Shown: positions 1,848-27,867 of the stretch, one piece after another | How positions within the stretch are numbered: position 1 is the first letter of the stretch | Layout of the letters: each line of letters starts with the position of its first letter | Source: Candidatus Saccharimonadota bacterium | Lineage (GTDB): Bacteria > Bacteroidota > Bacteroidia > Flavobacteriales > Blattabacteriaceae | Length of the DNA: 32,000 nt | NCBI GenBank assembly: GCA_029851085.1 | Contig: CP100318.1 | Coordinates: forward strand, 210,001-242,000 | Direction: 5' to 3' | The notes under the pieces: generated by a model | What the model was told of the DNA's origin: nothing | The model's input: only the letters and a program-made list of their open reading frames with translations | Database searches by the model: none | Program-made: the position numbers and the translations under genes

Positions 1848-4249
1848 ATGGAAAATATCTTTATTGAAGAATCTGAATCAGATTTTATTCCTTTATTGAG
1901 TCAAGATGAAGATGATAATATTATTAATGAAACTAATTCGAAAAATAAAAATAAATATATAAATATATTATATGTACGTCATATTGTATTATTTCCTTTT
2001 GTAGTTACTACTCTTACAATAAGTAATAATATTTTAATTGAATTATTACATAAAATTTATTATTCAAATAAATCAGATAAAATTGTAGGTATACTAACAC
2101 AAAAAAATAAAATTGAAAATCCTACTGAAAAAGATTTATATACTATTGGTACAGTTTCTAAAATTTTAAAATTATTAAAATTACCGAATGGTAATATTAC
2201 AGTAATAATAAAAGGAATTTATCGTTTTAAAATTAAAAAAATTATTTACAATAAAACTTACTTAAAAGCAGAAATTATACCTTTATGTGAAGAAAAATCT
2301 TTATCTGATAAAGAATCTATTGCTTTAATAGCTGCTATTAAAGAGATTACAATCAAAATAATACAAAAAAATCCTAACATACCTTCAGAAACTAATTTTG
2401 CTATACGTAATATTGAAAGTTATTCTTTATTAATTAATTTCATAGCTACTAATATGCATTTATCAATTGATAATAAACAAAAATTACTTGAATATGATAA
2501 TTTAAAAAAAAGAGCTATGGAAATTTTTCGTATTTTAAATATTGAATATCAATATTTAAAATTAAAAAATGATATACAATCTCGTGTACGTAATGATATT
2601 GATCAACAACAACGTGAATATTTTCTTCATCAAGAAATAAAAGCTATACAAGAAGAATTAGGAGATTTTTCTTATGAAAAAGAATTTAATGAATTACGTC
2701 TTAAAGGAAAAAAAAAAAATGGTCTAAAGAAGCTGAAAAACATTTTGAAAAAGAATTATGTAAATTACAACGTATAAATCCACAGATTCCTGAATATACT
2801 ATAATACGTAATTATTTAGATACGATGCTTGATTTACCATGGTATAAATATACTCAAGATAATTTTGATTTAAATCGTGCTAAAAAAATTCTTAATAAAA
2901 ATCATTATGGTATTGAAAATGTAAAAAAACGTATTATAGAACATTTAGCAGTTTTAAAACTTAAAAAAGATATGCGTGCCCCTATACTTTGTTTATATGG
3001 TCCTCCAGGGGTAGGTAAAACTTCTTTAGGAAAATCTATAGCTTTAGCGCTTAATAGAAAATATTTACGTATTTCTCTAGGTGGTGTACATGATGAAGCT
3101 GAAATTAGAGGTCATAGGAAAACATATATAGGAGCTATGCTTGGAAGAATGTTACAATCAATCAAAAAAGCTGGTACTTCTAATCCAGTTTTTATATTAG
3201 ATGAAATTGATAAATTAGGAATAAGTCATTATAATGATCCTGCTGCTGCAATGTTAGAAGTATTAGATCCTGAGCAAAATATGAATTTTTATGATAATTA
3301 TCTTGAATTAAATTATGATCTTTCTCAAGTAATGTTTATTGCAACAGCAAATTCACTTTCTCCTATTAGTCCTCCACTATTAGACAGAATGGAAATTATT
3401 GAAATGAATGATTATTCGGTGGAAGAAAAAATAAAAATTTTTAAAAAACATATTTTTCCTAAACAACTTAAAGAACATTGTTTAAAACATAATGATTTGT
3501 TAATTGGAATAAAACAAATTGAAAAAATTATTGAAAGTTATACACGTGAAGCTGGTGTTAGAAATTTAGAAAAATGTATTACAAAATTAATACGTTACGC
3601 TGTTACAAATATTGCTATGGGAAAAGAATATAAAAAACGTTTAACTATTGAATTAATAGAAGATATTTTAGGTCCTCCCCAAGATCCTACTCGTTATGAA
3701 GGTAACGATTATCCTGGTGTAGTAACAGGTTTAGCTTGGACAAATATAGGTGGAGATATTTTATTTATTGAATCTAGTTTATCTAAAGGTAAAGGTGAAT
3801 TAAGTATTACAGGAAATTTAGGAGAAATTATGAAAGAATCTGCTACTATAGCTTTACAATATATAAAAGCACATTATGAAGAATTTGGAGTTGATCCTAA
3901 AATGTTTGAAGAATACAATGTACATATTCATGTTCCAGAAGGTGCAGTACCTAAGGATGGACCATCAGCAGGAGTAACTATGCTAACTTCATTAGTTTCA
4001 AGTTATACTAATAAAAAATTAAGACCATATATTGCAATGACTGGAGAAATAACTTTAAGAGGTAAAGTATTACCCGTAGGTGGTATTAAAGAAAAAATAT
4101 TAGCAGCAAAACGTGCTAATATAAAAGAGATAATTCTTTCTAAGGGGAATCAAAAAGATATTAAAGAAATAAACCCCGATTATTTAAAAGGTATTACATT
4201 TAAATATGTTAATAATATGAATGAAGTAATTAATATTGCATTATTATGA
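1848..4249 (+). CDS. lon: ATP-dependent Lon protease, reading frame broken at an A12 tract (track ORFs 1815-2777 and 2825-4249 are two halves of one gene)
   Basis: The first ORF is the Lon N-terminal/LAN domain. The second has Walker [10 protein letters not shown], the catalytic serine motif KDGPSAG and the [13 protein letters not shown] lysine region. Reading the second frame back to nt 2720 gives [41 protein letters not shown], the conserved Lon linker, directly after the A-run. ATG 1848 (MENIF...) is a more likely start than the TTG at 1815. Confidence 0.9.
2708..2719 (+). other. A12 homopolymer that interrupts lon (candidate transcriptional-slippage site)
   Basis: Upstream frame: gga aaa aaa aaa aat ggt. 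Downstream frame: tgg tct aaa gaa, starting at 2720. 13 A (or 10 A) would give the continuous peptide [12 protein letters not shown]. Confidence 0.85.
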
Positions 4250-5466
4250 ATACTTTAGAAGTGAAAAATTCTACATTAATAGAATTATCCAAAAAATATG
4301 GTACTCCATTGTATATTTATAATGCAGATAAAATAGCATTACAATATAATACTTTACTAAAAGTATTTTCTAATATAGAAAAATTAAAAATTAATTATGC
4401 TTGTAAAGCAAATACTAATTTAAATATTTTAAAATTTTTGAAAAAACTTGGAAGTGGTTTAGATGCTGTTTCTATTCAAGAAATAGAAATTGGATTAAAA
4501 GCTGGTTTTGATCCAAATGAAATTTTATATACTCCTAATGGAGTATCATTTTCAGAAATAAATAAATCAATAAATTTAGGAGTAAAAATAAATATTGATA
4601 ATTGTTCTACTTTAGAATTTATTGGATTTAATAATATCAATTATCCTATAGGAATTAGAATTAATCCGCATATTATGGCTGGAGAAAATTATAAAATATC
4701 AGTAGGACATATTGATTCAAAATTTGGTATATCATATTATCAAATTCCATATATAAAAAAAATTATTGATAATACAGGTATTAATGTTAATGGAATTCAT
4801 ATGCATACAGGTTCTGATATTTTAGATATTAATTTATTTTTACGTGGAATAGATATTTTATTGGAAGTTGCACAAAAATTTATGAATATTGATTATATCG
4901 ATGTTGGTAGTGGATTTAAAGTTCCTTATAAAAAGGAAGATAAAAAAACAAATATTAATATTGTAAGTTCTATTATAACTAAAAAATTTAATTCTTTTTG
5001 TAAAAAAATTGGAAAAAAACCTACTTTGATATTTGAACCTGGAAAATTTCTAGTAAGTGAATCTGGATATTTTTTAGTAAGCGTAAATGTTATAAAACAT
5101 ACAATTTCTACAGTTTTTGCTGAAGTCGATTCAGGTTTTAATCATTTAATACGTCCAATGTATTATAATGCATATCATGATATTCAAAATATTTCTAATC
5201 CATTAGGTCGTTTACGTTTATATACGGTAGTAGGTTATATATGTGAATCTGATACTTTTGGATTGAATCGTCAAATAAATGAAATACGTGAAGGTGATAT
5301 TTTATGTATAAAAAATTCAGGAGCATATTGTTTTTCAATGTCATCAAATTATAATTCACGTTATCGTCCATCTGAAGTATTAATATATAAAGGAAATGAT
5401 TTTCTTATTAGAAAAAGAGAAACTTTACAAGATCTTATTCAAAATATTGTTGAAATAGATTTTTAA
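4246..5466 (+). CDS. lysA: Diaminopimelate decarboxylase
   Basis: 406-aa ORF with the PLP-lysine context [14 protein letters not shown] and EPGK. Its ATG overlaps the lon stop (ATGA, 4246-4249). Confidence 0.93.
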
Positions 5467-5471
5467 TATTA

Positions 5472-5556
5472 GGAGAGATGGCAGAGTGGTTAATTGCGAC
5501 GGTCTTGAAAACCGTAGAGGATAATACCTCCGGGGGTTCGAATCCCTCTCTCTCCG
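5472..5556 (+). tRNA. tRNA-Ser (anticodon UGA), class II with long variable arm; no encoded CCA
   Basis: Acceptor GGAGAGA/TCTCTCC, anticodon loop CTTGAAA, variable arm GTAGAGGATAATACCTCCG, T-loop GGTTCGAATCC, discriminator G. Confidence 0.93.
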
Positions 5557-5735
5557 CATTTATAAATAATTTATTATAAATGAAAAACATGATAATTTTA
5601 TTATAAAATTATTATAATAGAATCATTTCATATGATGTTTATTTACAATCTAGAAATACGTTTATCTGTTCCATGATATAATTTACATACATTTGTAAGC
5701 TATTGATGCTTTAATTAAAAAAAAATAAATTCAAT

Positions 5736-6818
5736 ATGGAATTGAATATAATTGGACAAGAAAAAATAAAAAAGTATTTATTATATACTATTAAAACTAA
5801 TAGAATTCCAAATGCATTATTTTTTGTTGGTCCAGAAGGATGTGGAACATTGCCAATGGCTTTAGTATATATTAAATATTTATTTAAATATAAAAATATA
5901 AATCCATTTTACTATCTTAATCATCCTGATGTGTATTGTCTTTTTCCAATTCCACTAATATATAATAAAAATTTTTTATCAAATTGGATAACTTTTATAA
6001 AAAACAACCCTTATGGTAGTTTATTTAATTGGATTAATTACCTAAATTTAGGAAATAAACATATACAAATAAGAGTAGAAGAAACTAAAGAAATTATCAA
6101 AAATATTTATTTAAAATCTTATAAAGATACTCGTAAAGTTGTAATAATTTGGATTCCTGAACTTTTACACATAGCAGCAGCAAATAAATTATTAAAAATT
6201 ATGGAAGAACCACCATCAAAAACTATATTTTTACTTATTGGAGAAAATGAAGAAAATGTATTATCAACAATTCGTTCTAGAACACAAATTATTAGATTTA
6301 ATAAATTAACATTTGATCAAATAAAAAATGCTTTACAAAAAGAAATTTTACTTAATGAAAAACAATCAGAATATATAAGTAGTAAAGTTGATGGTAATTG
6401 GAATATTGCTTTAGAATTATCTAAAGGAATTGAAAATAATAAAATTTTTGAAATTTATTTTAATTTTTTTATTCAAAATGTTTTAAAAGCTAAATCAACA
6501 CCTAAAGTTTTAAAAAACTTTCTAAAGTTAAGTGAATTTATTCATAAATGGGAAAAAGAAAAAAAAAAAAAATTCCTAATTTATTGTTTAGAAATATTTA
6601 GAAAAATTTTAATAAGTTATTATTTAAATAAAAAAATAGATAATATAGATAATTCTAAATATTTATTTTCTTTGATTAATATTAAAAATATACAAAATAT
6701 AATTTCATTAATTAATGAAGCTATTTATCATATAAATAAAAATGCTAATAGTAAAATAGTTATATTTGATTTATCAATCAAAATTACTAAATCTATTTAT
6801 AATAAATATGGAATATAA
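5736..6818 (+). CDS. holB: DNA polymerase III subunit delta-prime
   Basis: 360-aa ORF with a clamp-loader AAA+ fold: degenerate P-loop GPEGCGTLPMA, LLKIMEEPP, and SRC-like STIRSRTQ. Confidence 0.85.
   Translation: MELNIIGQEKIKKYLLYTIKTNRIPNALFFVGPEGCGTLPMALVYIKYLFKYKNINPFYYLNHPDVYCLFPIPLIYNKNFLSNWITFIKNNPYGSLFNWINYLNLGNKHIQIRVEETKEIIKNIYLKSYKDTRKVVIIWIPELLHIAAANKLLKIMEEPPSKTIFLLIGENEENVLSTIRSRTQIIRFNKLTFDQIKNALQKEILLNEKQSEYISSKVDGNWNIALELSKGIENNKIFEIYFNFFIQNVLKAKSTPKVLKNFLKLSEFIHKWEKEKKKKFLIYCLEIFRKILISYYLNKKIDNIDNSKYLFSLINIKNIQNIISLINEAIYHINKNANSKIVIFDLSIKITKSIYNKYGI
6559..6572 (+). other. A14 homopolymer, in frame inside holB (encodes EKKKKF)
   Basis: The sequence reads gaa aaa aaa aaa aaa ttc in the holB frame. 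This is the longest A-run I found in the window. Confidence 0.9.
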
Positions 6819-7106
6819 TTTTAAATAAAAATGCTAATAGTTTTATCAATCAAAATTACTAAATCTATTTATAATAAATATGGAATATAATTTTAAATAA
6901 AAATGCTAATAGTTTTATCAATCAAAATTACTAAATCTATTTATAATAAATATGGAATATAATTTTAAATAAAAATGCTAATAGTTTTATCAATCAAAAT
7001 TACTAAATCTATTTATAATAAATATGGAATATAATTTTAAATAAAAATGCTAATAGTTTTATCAATCAAAATTACTAAATCTATTTATAATAAATATGGA
7101 ATATAA
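6819..7106 (+). repeat. Perfect tandem array, 4 x 72 bp, derived from the holB 3' end plus the leuS start
   Basis: Unit: ttttaaataaaaatgctaatagttttatcaatcaaaattactaaatctatttataataaatatggaatataa. Copies at 6819-6890, 6891-6962, 6963-7034 and 7035-7106 are identical by eye. The source copy lies in holB at about 6735-6752 plus 6770-6818. Confidence 0.95.
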
Positions 7107-9897
7107 TTTTAGGTATATAGAAAAATATTGGCAACAATATTGGAAAAAATATAAAATATTTCAAACTTTGAATATTTATAAAAAACCTAAATTTTATATT
7201 TTAGATATGTTCCCATATCCATCAGGATCTGGACTTCATGTAGGTCATTTATTAGGATATATAGCTTCTGATATTTATGCTAGATACAAACGATTACAAG
7301 GTTATAATGTTCTTCATCCAATGGGATTTGATTCTTTTGGTCTTCCAACAGAACAATATTCTATTCAAACTGGAAATCATCCTCAAAAAACTACAAATAT
7401 TAATATAAAACGATATAAAGAACAATTAAATAATATTGGTTTGTCTTTTGATTGGGATAGAGAAATACGTACTAATGATCCAAAATATTATCGTTGGACA
7501 CAATATATTTTTATACAACTTTTCAACCATTGGTATGATCATAATACTAATAGTGCTCAACATATAAATAAATTAATTAAAATTTTTGAAAAAAATGGTA
7601 ATTTGTCTATTAAAACAAATTATAAAAAATTTTCTTCTAAAGAATGGAAAAATTTTTCTTTAACCACTAAAGAAAATATTTTACAAATGTATAGGTTAGC
7701 ATTTTATTCCGAATCTATAGTAAATTGGTGTCCATCATTGGGAACTGTTCTTGCTAATGATGAAATAAATAATGGAAAAAGTAAACGTGGTGGTTATACC
7801 GTTTACAAAAAAAAAATGATACAATGGAATCTTAGAATTACAGCTTATGCTGAACGTATTTTAAAAGGATTAGAATATTTAGATTGGCCTAATTTTATTA
7901 AAGAATCACAAATTAATTGGATAGGAAAATCTATTGGAGTTAATATTATATTCAATATATTAAATCATAATTATACTATACAAATATTTACTACACGTCC
8001 AGATACAATATTTGGAGTTTCATTTATCGTATTATCTATTAATCATTCTTTAATTGAAAAAATAACTACTGTTGAACAATATGTTAAAGTACAAGAATAT
8101 ATAAAAAAAATTGAATCAAAAAATATAAATACCAATGATATTTATGGAGAATTTACTGGAGCTTATGCTTTGCATCCATTTACCAACACTAAAATTCCCA
8201 TATATATTAGTGATTATATTTTAGATTTTTATGGAACTGGAGCTATTATGGCTGTTCCTGCACATGATAAACGAGATCATAAATTTGCTAAAAAATTTGG
8301 ATTAAATATTTTAGAAGTAATTAAAAGCAATATTAATGTAGAAATTAAAGCTTATGATGCTAAAGAAGGAATTTGTATCAATTCTTATTTTATTAATGGT
8401 TTAAATGTAAAAGAAGCTATTAAAATAATAACAAAAAAAATTGAAGAAAAAGGGATAGGTTTTTCTATGATAAATTATCATTTACATGACGCGGTATTTT
8501 CTAGACAACGTTATTGGGGTGAACCAATTCCTATATATTTTAAACAAGGAATACCTAAAACAATTCCATTAGATAAATTACCTTTGATACTTCCAAATAT
8601 TGATAATTATTTTCCATTAAAAAATGGAAAATCTCCACTAAATAGAGCTAAAATATGGGCTTGGGATGAAATAAAACAAAAAGTTGTTTCTAATGATTTA
8701 ATAGATCAAAAACATGTATTTCCTATAGAAACTGATACTATGCCAAGTTGGGCAGGATCAAGTTGGTATTTTATACGTTATATGGATCCTTTAAATAAAA
8801 AAAATATTGTTAACCATGAAAATGAATCTTATTGGAAAAATGTAGATTTATATATAGGTGGATCTGAACATACTACAGGACATTTAATATACGCTAGATT
8901 TTATCATAAATTTTTAAAAGATATTGGTATTGTAAAAACAGAAGAACCTTTTAAAAAACTTATAAATCAAGGACTTATTTTAGGATATACTGCTTATATA
9001 GCACGTGATATTAAAAATAATATATTGATATCTGATGAATTAGTTAAAAAAAAAAATTTACAATTTATACAATATATACCCATTGATATAAATTTGTTGA
9101 AAAATAATAATGAATTAGATATAAAAAAATTTAGAAAATGGAACAATGAATTTTTTAAAGCAAACTTATATATGAAAAATAGATTGTTTTTATGTAAACG
9201 TAAAATGGAAAAAATGTCAAAATCTAAATTTAATATTATTAATCCAGATATTATTTGTGATAAATATGGTGCTGATACGTTAAGATTATATGAGATGTTT
9301 TTAGGTCCTTTAAGATATTCTAAACCATGGGATATACAAGGAATTACTGGTGTACATAATTTTTTAAAAAAATTTTGGATGTTATTTTATAATAAAAATG
9401 GTACATTTTATGTAGATGATAAACAATCACCTTCTAATAAAGAACTAAAAATATTACATAAGACAATTAAAAAAATTATAGATAATATGCATAATTTATC
9501 TTTTAATACTTCAATTAGTACTTTTATGATTGCAGTAAATAATTTACTGAAATTAAAGTGTAATAAACGTGTTATATTAGAACCATTAGTAATTTTGCTT
9601 TCTCCTTTTGCACCCCATATTTCTGAAGAATTATGGTGTAAATTAGGTCATAAATATTCAGTTAATTTGTCTAAAATTCCTAAATTTTGTTCAGAATATT
9701 TATCAGAAAAAAATATTACATATCCTATAATGATTAATGGAAAATTAAAATTCAAAATGGATTTTGAAATAGATGTTAAAACTGAAGATATTAAAAATAT
9801 AATATTAAATGATACCAAAATAATAAATTATTTAAATGGTAAAAAAATTAAAAATTTTATTTTTATACCAAAAAAAATAATAAATATTGTTATATAA
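7096..9897 (+). CDS. leuS: Leucyl-tRNA synthetase
   Basis: 933-aa ORF with the class I HIGH-type motif PYPSGSGLHVGHLLGY, the KMSKS motif (KMSKSKFN) and the CP1 editing domain region TTRPDTIFG. Confidence 0.97.
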   Translation: MEYNFRYIEKYWQQYWKKYKIFQTLNIYKKPKFYILDMFPYPSGSGLHVGHLLGYIASDIYARYKRLQGYNVLHPMGFDSFGLPTEQYSIQTGNHPQKTTNINIKRYKEQLNNIGLSFDWDREIRTNDPKYYRWTQYIFIQLFNHWYDHNTNSAQHINKLIKIFEKNGNLSIKTNYKKFSSKEWKNFSLTTKENILQMYRLAFYSESIVNWCPSLGTVLANDEINNGKSKRGGYTVYKKKMIQWNLRITAYAERILKGLEYLDWPNFIKESQINWIGKSIGVNIIFNILNHNYTIQIFTTRPDTIFGVSFIVLSINHSLIEKITTVEQYVKVQEYIKKIESKNINTNDIYGEFTGAYALHPFTNTKIPIYISDYILDFYGTGAIMAVPAHDKRDHKFAKKFGLNILEVIKSNINVEIKAYDAKEGICINSYFINGLNVKEAIKIITKKIEEKGIGFSMINYHLHDAVFSRQRYWGEPIPIYFKQGIPKTIPLDKLPLILPNIDNYFPLKNGKSPLNRAKIWAWDEIKQKVVSNDLIDQKHVFPIETDTMPSWAGSSWYFIRYMDPLNKKNIVNHENESYWKNVDLYIGGSEHTTGHLIYARFYHKFLKDIGIVKTEEPFKKLINQGLILGYTAYIARDIKNNILISDELVKKKNLQFIQYIPIDINLLKNNNELDIKKFRKWNNEFFKANLYMKNRLFLCKRKMEKMSKSKFNIINPDIICDKYGADTLRLYEMFLGPLRYSKPWDIQGITGVHNFLKKFWMLFYNKNGTFYVDDKQSPSNKELKILHKTIKKIIDNMHNLSFNTSISTFMIAVNNLLKLKCNKRVILEPLVILLSPFAPHISEELWCKLGHKYSVNLSKIPKFCSEYLSEKNITYPIMINGKLKFKMDFEIDVKTEDIKNIILNDTKIINYLNGKKIKNFIFIPKKIINIVI

Positions 9898-20663: not shown

Positions 20664-20719
20664 AACTAATGAATTTATTAATAATAAATATAATATTAAT
20701 AAATATTAATAAATAATCA

Positions 20720-20884
20720 ATGAAATCAATTTTAAAAAAAATTATTAAAAATATTATTTATATAATATTATTATTAGGTATAATATTAGGTATAATAATA
20801 ATTATTATAATTATAATTATATATGTATTTTCAATACTATTTTATAAATCATTAGATAATTATATTAAGAATACTATTTTTTAA
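20720..20884 (+). CDS. Hypothetical 54-aa single-pass membrane protein (not in the ORF track)
   Basis: ATG 20720 to TAA 20882-20884. Translation: MKSILKKIIKNIIYIILLLGIILGIIIIIIIIIIYVFSILFYKSLDNYIKNTIF. It has a basic N-terminus, a hydrophobic helix of about 25 residues and a short polar tail. It fills most of the otherwise unexplained gap between ddl and rluD. Confidence 0.4.
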   Translation: MKSILKKIIKNIIYIILLLGIILGIIIIIIIIIIYVFSILFYKSLDNYIKNTIF

Positions 20885-20949
20885 CTATTTATTCAAAATA
20901 AATAAAATTCCTTTTGAGATTATTTTCAAAATGCGTAAATATTATATAT

Positions 20950-26541: not shown

Positions 26542-27867
26542 ATGTTAAAATATTATTTATTTTTATTACTTTTTTTCTTTAAAGTTTATGGGGATAACAA
26601 ATATTATGAATTATTAGATAATAAAATTAATACTGATATATCCATAAGTAGCATGGGAGGTATATCTACTGTTTATGATAGTAAATTTGAATTAAATTTT
26701 AAAAATCCAGCAAATAATTCAAAAGTAAAAAATTTAATATTTAATATGAATTTTAATATTGAATTTTCAGACTTATCAAATATTGATTATTTTTTTTTAA
26801 AAAAAAATAATAATAATTTATTATTTTCTAATATTTCATTAGGTTTCCCTATAAGTGAAAATATTGTAGGAGGATTTGGTATTAAACCATATGCAATTCA
26901 TCAAGGAAATCATTTAAATGTATTAAATACATTTATTTGTTATAAAATTAATAATAAAATAAGTGGAGGTGTTTTAATGGATTATTTATTTGGATTATTA
27001 GATGATGATAAGCATTATAATGGATTAAATTCTAAAATAGGAATCTTGTATAAAATTCCATTAAAAAATAAATATTATAGCAATATAGGTATTAATTCTA
27101 ATATATTAAATTATACTATTGCATCTCAATCGGATAAATCATCTACTAAACCTGCATCACAATCATCTACTGCATCACAATCATCTACTGCATCATATAC
27201 TGCCTCTGCATCACAATCTGCCTCATATACTGCATCACAATCATCTACTGCCTCTATACAATCGACTACATCTAAACCTACTAAATCTACTAAACCTGCT
27301 AAACAACAATCTACTACTGCTAAATCGACTGCTAGTAAACAATCGACTACAACATCTGCAAAATCATCTAAACAATCTACTACTGCTAAATCGACTGCTA
27401 GTAAACAATCGACTACAACATCTGCAAAATCATCTAAACAATCTACTACTGCTAAATCGACTAAAAATAGAAATATTCCTGTTGATATTAATATAGGTTT
27501 TTTATATGGCCAAAATAAAAAATGGGGTATAGGTACACAATTGGATTTTGTAAGATATAAAATTAATGATAAAAATGTCAATTCACAAAGATATTCTATA
27601 GGAGGTTTTTTTAGACCAAAATATAATTCTATAAATTATTTGGATACAGTAATATATCGTGTAGGATCATTTTTTGAAAAAAAAATATATAATTATAATT
27701 ATGGATTAACATTGGGAATGGAATTACCTATTAAATATAAGATTTATTTAAATGAAAGTTATTCATCTTTTAATGTTAATTGTACTATAGGTAATAATGG
27801 AAAAGAAAATTATGTAAACTTCATATTTGGATTTACATTTAATGAGAACTGGGTTAATAAATTATGA
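26542..27867 (+). CDS. Secreted/outer-membrane beta-barrel candidate (PorV/FadL-like N-terminal motif) with a central S/T/A/Q/K low-complexity repeat insert
   Basis: Signal-peptide-like MLKYYLFLLLFFFKVYG. SSMGGISTVYDSKFELNFKNPAN resembles the (S/G)MGG....D......NPA motif of FadL/PorV-type barrels. Alternating aromatic/hydrophilic strands run toward the C-terminus (YVNFIFGFTFNENW). The family call comes from memory of the motif only. Confidence 0.7.
   Translation: MLKYYLFLLLFFFKVYGDNKYYELLDNKINTDISISSMGGISTVYDSKFELNFKNPANNSKVKNLIFNMNFNIEFSDLSNIDYFFLKKNNNNLLFSNISLGFPISENIVGGFGIKPYAIHQGNHLNVLNTFICYKINNKISGGVLMDYLFGLLDDDKHYNGLNSKIGILYKIPLKNKYYSNIGINSNILNYTIASQSDKSSTKPASQSSTASQSSTASYTASASQSASYTASQSSTASIQSTTSKPTKSTKPAKQQSTTAKSTASKQSTTTSAKSSKQSTTAKSTASKQSTTTSAKSSKQSTTAKSTKNRNIPVDINIGFLYGQNKKWGIGTQLDFVRYKINDKNVNSQRYSIGGFFRPKYNSINYLDTVIYRVGSFFEKKIYNYNYGLTLGMELPIKYKIYLNESYSSFNVNCTIGNNGKENYVNFIFGFTFNENWVNKL
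27154..27249 (+). repeat. Degenerate in-frame 18-bp repeats (unit gcatcacaatcatctact, coding ASQSST)
   Basis: Perfect units start at 27154, 27172 and 27232, with diverged copies between them (ASYTAS, ASQSASYT). Confidence 0.8.
27307..27462 (+). repeat. In-frame 66-bp tandem repeat, about 2.4 copies (22-aa unit QSTTAKSTASKQSTTTSAKSSK)
   Basis: The unit caatctactactgctaaatcgactgctagtaaacaatcgactacaacatctgcaaaatcatctaaa starts at 27307 and 27373. A 24-nt partial third copy starts at 27439. Copies are identical by eye. Confidence 0.9.

Follow-up and report, generated by a model that had tools for sequence, protein, structure and literature searches.

A perfect 72-bp tandem array between holB and leuS of the beetle endosymbiont Candidatus Bostrichicola ureolyticus: probably a young, neutral expansion at a recurrently unstable junction

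Results

Architecture of the holB/leuS Junction

The stretch analyzed here, a window of 32,000 nt (positions 210,001 to 242,000 of CP100318.1; all coordinates below refer to this window), belongs to Candidatus Bostrichicola ureolyticus strain LBRU, a Bacteroidota endosymbiont of the beetle Lyctus brunneus whose genome record has a length of 337,436 bp. The window is 94.8 % coding at 21.9 % GC, and the leucyl-tRNA synthetase (LeuRS) encoded in it shares 98 % and 88 % identity with proteins that carry the name Candidatus Bostrichicola ureolyticus. The subject of this study is a tandem array that separates holB, the gene for the DNA polymerase III delta' subunit, from the LeuRS gene leuS, in the gene order lon-lysA-(tRNA-Ser)-holB-leuS-gdhA-alaS that is the same across the compared strains.

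The deposited sequence carries 4.75 copies of a 72-bp unit at 100 % identity, 342 bp in total (Table 1). Tandem Repeats Finder (TRF), applied to the window, reported this period-72 run with 100 % matches, no indels, 4.8 copies and a score of 684, compared with 316 for the next best array and at most 121 for all others. By our estimate, a run of ~270 consecutive period-72 matches, at a match probability of ~0.33 per base in DNA of 21.9 % GC, is astronomically unlikely to arise by chance. Each unit is composed of TTTTA, an 18-nt segment of holB (6735–6752) and the holB end from 6770 to 6818, thus leaving out 17 nt of holB; these 17 nt are found in all relatives, which identifies the holB copy of 6753–6769 as the ancestral one. 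None of the 16-mers of the unit occurs elsewhere in the window, and the copies lie head to tail and in register, built from the adjacent unique holB sequence as expected for a slippage-type duplication. The initial annotation, made from the sequence alone, had described four identical 72-nt units derived from holB minus 17 nt, and TRF as well as direct inspection confirmed this base for base.

Duplication of the junction has multiplied its coding signals. The leuS start context ATGGAATATAATTTT is present at 6808, 6880, 6952, 7024 and 7096; the first four starts are truncated, reading MEYNFK-stop, and only the fifth continues into LeuRS (MEYNFRYIEK...). In addition, the 18-nt patch supplies the ATG of a 19-codon mini-open reading frame (mini-ORF) in each of the four extra units; the fourth has a stop codon that shares bases with the true leuS ATG, in the same way as the holB stop of strain LAFR (see below). 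No other ORFs of at least 20 aa crossing the array were found on either strand. The gap between the end of holB at 6818 and the leuS start at 7096 amounts to 277 nt. The five leuS contexts, four of them ending after six codons, the four 19-codon ORFs and the size of the gap had all been given correctly in the initial annotation, while its statement that there is otherwise almost no spacer DNA is overstated, as spacers of 286, 250, 178 and 142 nt are present in the window.

The array leaves both essential genes undamaged, since holB still stops at its first TAA, with HolB itself unaltered, and the last unit restores the ancestral 54 nt upstream of leuS. The true leuS start, MEYNFRYIEKYWQQYW, is kept in every strain as well as in other symbionts of the Flavobacteriales.

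Table 1. Coordinates of genes, repeat units, short reading frames and hairpins at the holB/leuS junction of strain LBRU.
Feature	Position	Strand	Remarks
holB (DNA polymerase III delta')	5736–6818	+	360 aa, ends ...SIYNKYGI-stop; Pfam PF13177, E=6e-29; WGH27763.1
leuS (leucyl-tRNA synthetase)	7096–9897	+	933 aa; WGH27764.1
Full period-72 run	6770–7111	+	first 54 nt (6770–6823) = ancestral holB-tail/leuS-start junction
Four extra 72-bp units	6819–6890, 6891–6962, 6963–7034, 7035–7106	+	identical to each other; 288 nt; missing from strain LAFR
18-nt holB segment AATAAAAATGCTAATAGT	6735–6752	+	in every unit; source of the mini-ORF ATG
17 nt of holB, AAAATAGTTATATTTGA	6753–6769	+	left out of the unit; found in all relatives
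Truncated leuS starts (MEYNFK-stop)	6808–6828, 6880–6900, 6952–6972, 7024–7044	+	direct sequence check
Four 19-codon mini-ORFs, MLIVLSIKITKSIYNKYGI-stop	6831–6890, 6903–6962, 6975–7034, 7047–7106	+	holB frame; opened by ATGCTAATAGT at 6831, 6903, 6975 and 7047
Hairpin A, TATTTAT-CAT-ATAAATA	6722–6738		right arm holds the start of the 18-nt patch source (6733–6735)
Hairpin B, TTTGATT-TATC-AATCAAA	6765–6782		holds breakpoint 6769/6770 and the LCAV crossover TAT(C/T)AAT

The Same Junction in Related Strains

The genome paper (PMC10284843) lists strains, hosts and sequencing data in its supplementary tables. Besides LBRU (CP100318; Illumina SRR19201365 plus Oxford Nanopore Technologies (ONT) SRR19201357, 55x), the comparison included LCAV from L. 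cavicollis (CP100320, 693x), LAFR from L. africanus (JAMYEW..., a draft of 171 contigs), DMIN from Dinoderus minutus (CP100321) and DPOR from D. porcellus (CP100319). In the two Dinoderus strains, the junction reads ...TATAGTAAATAA atatt ATGGAATAT..., that is, the holB TAA followed by a 5-nt spacer and the leuS ATG, and no tandem repeat was found there in DMIN or DPOR (three runs plus CP100319, giving four assemblies, of which one comes from a PacBio run). The LAFR junction, ...TATAATAAAT ATGGAATATAA TTTTAGGTCTATAG..., equals that of LBRU exactly, minus 288 nt, and here holB and leuS overlap by the 11 nt ATGGAATATAA. The distances between conserved anchors reflect these differences: 101 nt in DMIN and DPOR, 94 nt in LAFR, 173 nt in LCAV and 382 nt in LBRU. 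With LAFR, DMIN and DPOR being single-copy at the junction, the array of LBRU is derived.

LCAV, although 99.2 % identical to LBRU over 11 kb (10,680 matches, 87 mismatches), carries an array of its own at the same spot, with 3.2 copies of the 35-bp unit TATTAATCAAAATTACTAAATCTATTTATAATAAA (112 bp). The holB stop falls within the first 35-bp unit and the leuS start follows 74 nt further on; the array contains no ATG, and its unit length is not a multiple of three. The LCAV joints (TATTAAT/CAAAA) are chimeras of two imperfect 9-nt direct repeats at a distance of 35 bp, TATCAATCA and TATTAATAA; to judge from the sequence, short direct repeats would here have misaligned by slippage in textbook fashion. 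A single copy in LAFR and a separate array in LCAV imply that the junction has expanded twice within ~1 % divergence. HolB of LBRU and LCAV is 100 % identical except for its tail, which varies by strain: SK-stop in Dinoderus, NKY-stop in LCAV and NKYGI-stop in both LBRU and LAFR. Pairwise distances among the three Lyctus strains are nearly equal (0.98–1.05 % over 1.45 kb), and LBRU groups with LAFR by one informative substitution, the only one in this 1.45 kb, and by a shared 9-nt deletion; the branching order is not resolvable from 1.45 kb.

Among the 16 indel events in the 11-kb alignment of LBRU and LCAV, the one at the holB/leuS junction is by far the largest, and the junction array is the only clean tandem array in the compared contig L008. 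That an independent array in LCAV should fall on the same ~100 bp is unlikely by chance, at roughly 2 % by our own estimate.

Representation of the Array in Sequencing Reads

As an independent check of the reads, we consulted the Logan k=31 assembly of SRR19201365, which derives from the same strain LBRU; its contig L013 is identical to the window over 4568 of 4568 nt. In a k=31 de Bruijn graph built from the window, the k-mer that branches first is expected at 6770–6800; the Logan contig L014 ends at 6799, the base directly ahead of this branch. Likewise, at a second array in the window (see below), Logan contigs stop at 27334 and begin at 27433, again at predicted branch points. Contig ends at the predicted branch points indicate that the novel repeat joints are present in the Illumina reads, rather than being missing from an independent assembly as expected of an artefact. 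The 112-bp array of LCAV is short enough to be covered by single reads.

A related possibility is that the repeat exists, yet in a copy number other than 4.75 or in one that varies inside the host, the deposited number then being an artefact of assembly that reflects one way of resolving a loop in the graph. The 72-bp unit is shorter and the 342-bp array longer than Illumina reads, for which reason short reads cannot count the copies, and the k=31 graph proves a loop in the sequence, not the number of times it is traversed. Moreover, the assembly combined SPAdes, MaSuRCA and manual steps in Geneious (PMC10284843) at just 55x, and variable tandem copy numbers within single insects have been documented for Portiera (PMC3673631). 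On the other side, the ONT reads SRR19201357 from L. brunneus, which easily span 342 bp, went into the hybrid assembly (PMC10284843), and the break of the independent contig at 6799 excludes a true single copy. We thus consider a wrong or heterogeneous copy number unlikely, albeit with a chance that deserves to be kept in mind.

Promoter, RNA and Translation Signals

None of the searches for promoters, terminators, RNA structure and Rfam families yielded a sign of function for the array. No sigma-70-type promoter was found on the + strand of the unit, the region containing 10 promoter-like sites versus 13.6 in shuffled sequences, and no terminator-like sites were found in the array region. A search for TAnnTTTG, the -7 motif of Bacteroidota, gave no match on the + strand of the unit and 62 matches in the window, which is chance level (67.8 expected); the single + strand match nearby, at 6761–6768, belongs to the 17 nt missing from the unit. 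These scans led us to reject a promoter or terminator reading of the array. On the antisense strand, five copies of TAATTTTG match TAnnTTTG, at 6779–6786 and, correspondingly placed in the units, at 6851, 6923, 6995 and 7067. If active, they would direct transcription into holB, but with the motif at chance frequency in the window they are probably meaningless.

These results bear on the idea that the array multiplies a leuS promoter or another cis-element located in the last ~34 bp of holB, with both Lyctus expansions having been selected for higher leuS transcription. A core, AATCAAAATTACTAAATCTATTTATAATAAATAT, with a TATAAT hexamer is indeed common to the two independent arrays, and two expansions at one site within ~1 % divergence are unusual. 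However, any array at this junction must contain the bases just upstream of leuS, and so a shared core is expected from position alone; promoter multiplication further presupposes a promoter consensus on the sense strand of the units, which neither the sigma-70-type scan nor the TAnnTTTG search provided. Selection for promoter copies appears to us very unlikely.

The RNA of 6735–7160 is predicted to fold no better than shuffled sequences (z = 0.02), and an Rfam scan of 5400–7400 at E<=1 returned nothing in the array, just the tRNA-Ser and two sub-threshold matches over that tRNA. A structured RNA, riboswitch or T-box was rejected on these grounds. A leader-peptide attenuator was dismissed as well: MEYNFK is encoded without a Leu codon, the mini-ORF has two scattered ones, and neither a terminator nor a fold better than shuffled (z again 0.02) accompanies them.

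The proposal that the array forms a translational leader of variable copy number, in which the MEYNFK-stop starts and the mini-ORFs capture ribosomes and thereby tune or throttle LeuRS synthesis, calls for closer consideration. With all neighboring genes on the + strand and no predicted terminator, the array is probably transcribed. Bacteroidota initiate translation without a Shine-Dalgarno interaction and choose start codons by local context, namely A at -3, -6, -12 and -13 together with unstructured RNA (PMC6847099). All five leuS-type starts share an identical context from -21 to +15 with A at -3 and -6, and the decoys, if on the mRNA, may well be used and translated into hexapeptides; in addition, the last mini-ORF stop on the true ATG mimics the holB/leuS overlap that preceded the array. 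What argues against a throttle is first the mode of bacterial initiation, in which 30S subunits bind internally and do not scan from the 5' end. Upstream starts alone consequently do not lower the use of a downstream start, and the idea borrows eukaryotic logic. Second, the 54 nt upstream of the true leuS start are still the ancestral ones, and the extra AUGs nearest to this start, at -49 and -72, lie outside the zones of -21 to -1 and +4 to +24, the only ones in which Bacteroidota deplete additional AUGs (PMC6847099). Third, LAFR and the Dinoderus strains do without any array, and the LCAV array, with neither an ATG nor a triplet unit, shares with that of LBRU its location only and no coding feature. 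The decoy-start throttle is hence mechanistically weak and without support in our data, and we regard it as very unlikely.

Hairpins at the Breakpoints and a Possible Hot Spot

Two small perfect hairpins coincide with breakpoints of the rearrangements (Table 1). Hairpin B, the only element surviving in centroid folds, pairs perfectly in all three Lyctus strains; in Dinoderus, where no expansion has occurred, a C-to-A difference (AATAAAA) disrupts it. Perfect hairpins with 7-bp stems make up 5.6 % of the window and contain three of the six breakpoints, corresponding to a post-hoc binomial probability of ~0.004. Strong DNA secondary structure of the 72-bp unit itself was examined and rejected (z-scores of 0.46 and -0.95). 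One may go further and picture the junction as an active, hairpin-driven hot spot of template switching that is heteroplasmic in the beetles, with each unit adding a competent decoy leuS start for ribosomes that go by local context alone, and the copy number measurably changing LeuRS output in an organism with next to no transcriptional regulation; this combined scenario we view as highly doubtful.

Other Repeats and Neighboring Sequences

A second perfect array (66 bp x 2.4, 100 % identity) is located at 27305–27462, inside an ORF on the + strand (26542–27867), and the contig breaks at 27334 and 27433 place it in the reads, too. It is nested in degenerate 9-, 18-, 30- and 33-bp repeats (27152–27462) that code for a low-complexity stretch rich in Ser, Thr, Ala, Gln and Lys. 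The encoded protein of 441 aa is hydrophobic at its N-terminus and matches no Pfam family; the homology search, swamped by low-complexity matches, retrieved no orthologues, only Chryseobacterium hypothetical proteins of ~30 % identity. Where two genes are transcribed divergently, the spacer of 250 nt between them (20664–20913) is made up almost wholly of short degenerate repeats of A and T only, with periods of 3, 6, 9, 10, 12 and 15 (TRF 20667–20821), and may represent a promoter region or low-complexity slippage debris.

Within the flanking genes, holB contains a poly(A) tract, A5-G-A14, at 6553–6572 (..EKEKKKKF..) that is identical in LCAV. The LAFR draft contig (L015, positions 1–33) starts within this tract and has A10-G-A22 there; the difference in length, not divisible by three, could stem from a slippage-prone homopolymer or from an assembly problem at the contig end. 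An in-frame AAAAAA insertion in leuS (9046–9051; ...LVKKKNLQF in LBRU versus ...LVKNLQF in LCAV) is a further homopolymer-slippage difference between the two strains. Upstream of holB, the 178-nt spacer to the tRNA-Ser gene (5558–5735) is a remnant of hpf, the gene for a ribosome hibernation factor (Ribosomal_S30AE), which is intact in DPOR (93 aa), frameshifted in DMIN and reduced to fragments in the Lyctus strains (residues 19–42 and 49–56 in LBRU, residues 63–82 in LCAV), with ~76 nt kept in LBRU and lost from LCAV; the region corresponds to positions 3699–3980, 2628–2904 and ~2750–2850 of the compared contigs L010, L009 and L008, respectively. The erosion of hpf is thus ongoing and strain-specific, and it adjoins the array.

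Discussion

In our view, the array between holB and leuS of strain LBRU is, with high probability, a young, lineage-specific and presumably neutral tandem expansion, i.e., a minisatellite, at a junction that is recurrently unstable. The initial annotation had likewise proposed a very recent slippage-type expansion, in accord with the absence of the 72-bp array from LAFR, LCAV, DMIN and DPOR.

The states of the junction in the compared strains can be arranged into a plausible history. The Lyctus ancestor would have had holB ending in ...NKY-TAA, followed by 4 nt and the leuS ATG, which equals the collapsed LCAV state ...AATAAATATTAATAATATGG, the spacer of Dinoderus being 5 nt. A 9-nt deletion between AATAT direct repeats would then have removed the holB TAA, adding Gly-Ile to HolB (...NKYGI-TAA) and creating the 11-nt overlap with the leuS ATG that is seen in LAFR. 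In LBRU, a template switch may subsequently have joined the sequence after leuS codon 5 (...ATTTTA) to holB 6735–6752 and then to 6770, giving a 72-nt unit of an 18-nt patch plus the 54-nt junction; an 89-bp duplication followed by a 17-nt deletion would be an equivalent description. Amplification to four extra copies would have followed by in-register slippage. LCAV would have undergone a separate duplication of a 35-bp piece of the holB tail between TATCAATCA and TATTAATAA. According to this series, the claim of the initial annotation that holB and leuS once overlapped applies to the state just before the expansion, but the overlap was itself produced by the 9-nt deletion and is therefore derived, the older states having 4–5-nt spacers; the spacers in Dinoderus and in collapsed LCAV rule out an ancient overlap as the deep ancestral state. 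The strings ataaaaat and atagaaaaat, suggested as seeds of the expansion, were not borne out, as neither is found at the novel joints.

As to the mechanism, we infer RecA-independent slippage or template switching, possibly favored by the two small hairpins at the breakpoints. With both essential genes intact, the insertion would have been tolerated by selection, which is typically weak in endosymbionts, and the decoy starts and mini-ORFs would then be by-products of duplicating a stop/start overlap.

Several points weigh against this interpretation. The novel joints in LBRU, ...ATTTTA/AATAAAAATGC and ...AATAGT/TTTATC, have 2 nt (TA) and 0 nt of microhomology, respectively, such that simple slipped mispairing fails to explain the founding event and a two-step or template-switch origin must be assumed. 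The association of hairpins with breakpoints is post hoc and involves six breakpoints; it is a lead, not proof. Perfect identity of the copies fits a recent origin but is a weak clock, as the probability of no substitution in 288 nt since the ~1 % split amounts to 0.13–0.31, and we rejected its use for dating. Neutrality is assumed, and two independent expansions of the same ~34-bp segment upstream of leuS could reflect selection on leuS expression. Finally, LBRU has mutL in full length upstream of lon (contig L014, 2769–4469), coding for 566 aa with the domains HATPase_c_3, DNA_mis_repair and MutL_C. Its retention means that the genome is not obviously deficient in repair, and that the tandem repeats have been unstable despite at least part of the mismatch-repair system.

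The genomes of obligate insect endosymbionts are usually called structurally frozen. Here, two independent expansions and a 9-nt deletion have affected one essential-gene junction in strains ~1 % apart, and the series from spacer to overlap to array offers a dated, stepwise view of how slippage may create spacer DNA, shift stop/start overlaps and spawn spurious ORFs in a 337-kb genome. Polymerase chain reaction (PCR) across the junction should distinguish the Lyctus symbionts and could expose heteroplasmy within hosts. If copy number affected leuS expression, this would be a rare case of repeat-based tuning in a symbiont, which nothing in our analysis supports.

Comparison with Known Systems

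Contingency loci of pathogens under fluctuating selection are built from repeat units of 1–9 nt, and leader-peptide attenuators need regulatory codons and alternative hairpins. The LBRU array resembles contingency loci and leaders with upstream ORFs in that tandem repeats lie between an upstream region and a gene start and short ORFs overlap the main start, whereas its 72-bp unit is far longer than those of contingency loci. In E. coli, Lovett and co-workers reportedly described slipped misalignment and template switching that occur independently of RecA where there are short direct repeats or quasi-palindromes. The chimeric joints of LCAV, the 9-nt AATAT-flanked deletion shared by LBRU, the breakpoints inside small hairpins and the in-register expansion from two copies would all be in line with such events; the founding joints of LBRU, with 0–2 nt of microhomology and an 18-nt templated patch, depart from them, and the symbiont is unculturable.

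Among symbionts of the same phylum and lifestyle, Karelsulcia has ~90 % of its intrahost indel density in homopolymers and short tandem repeats, which was ascribed to replication slippage (PMC13345377). That study considered indels of <50 bp and excluded larger structural variants, while the event in LBRU comprises 288 bp with a 72-bp unit. The closest parallel is Candidatus Portiera aleyrodidarum BT of whiteflies, an obligate insect endosymbiont with a genome of ~350 kb in which intergenic DNA grew via tandem repeats in one lineage and not in its sister, including a 6.1-kb unit present in 1 to 4+ tandem copies within insects; the cause was ascribed to errors of replication and repair, not to function (Sloan & Moran 2013, PMC3673631). 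The two systems differ in scale and setting: Portiera has genome-wide 7-bp microsatellites and the 6.1-kb unit, tied to its having lost dnaQ along with further repair genes and to rearrangements, whereas Bostrichicola has a 72-bp (LBRU) or 35-bp (LCAV) unit at one gene junction, with mutL kept and perfect synteny. The initial annotation knew of no description of such an arrangement, and the genome paper indeed never mentions tandem repeats (PMC10284843), but with the precedent of Portiera (PMC3673631) the LBRU array is a further instance of an already known phenomenon, the expansion of intergenic tandem repeats in insect endosymbionts.

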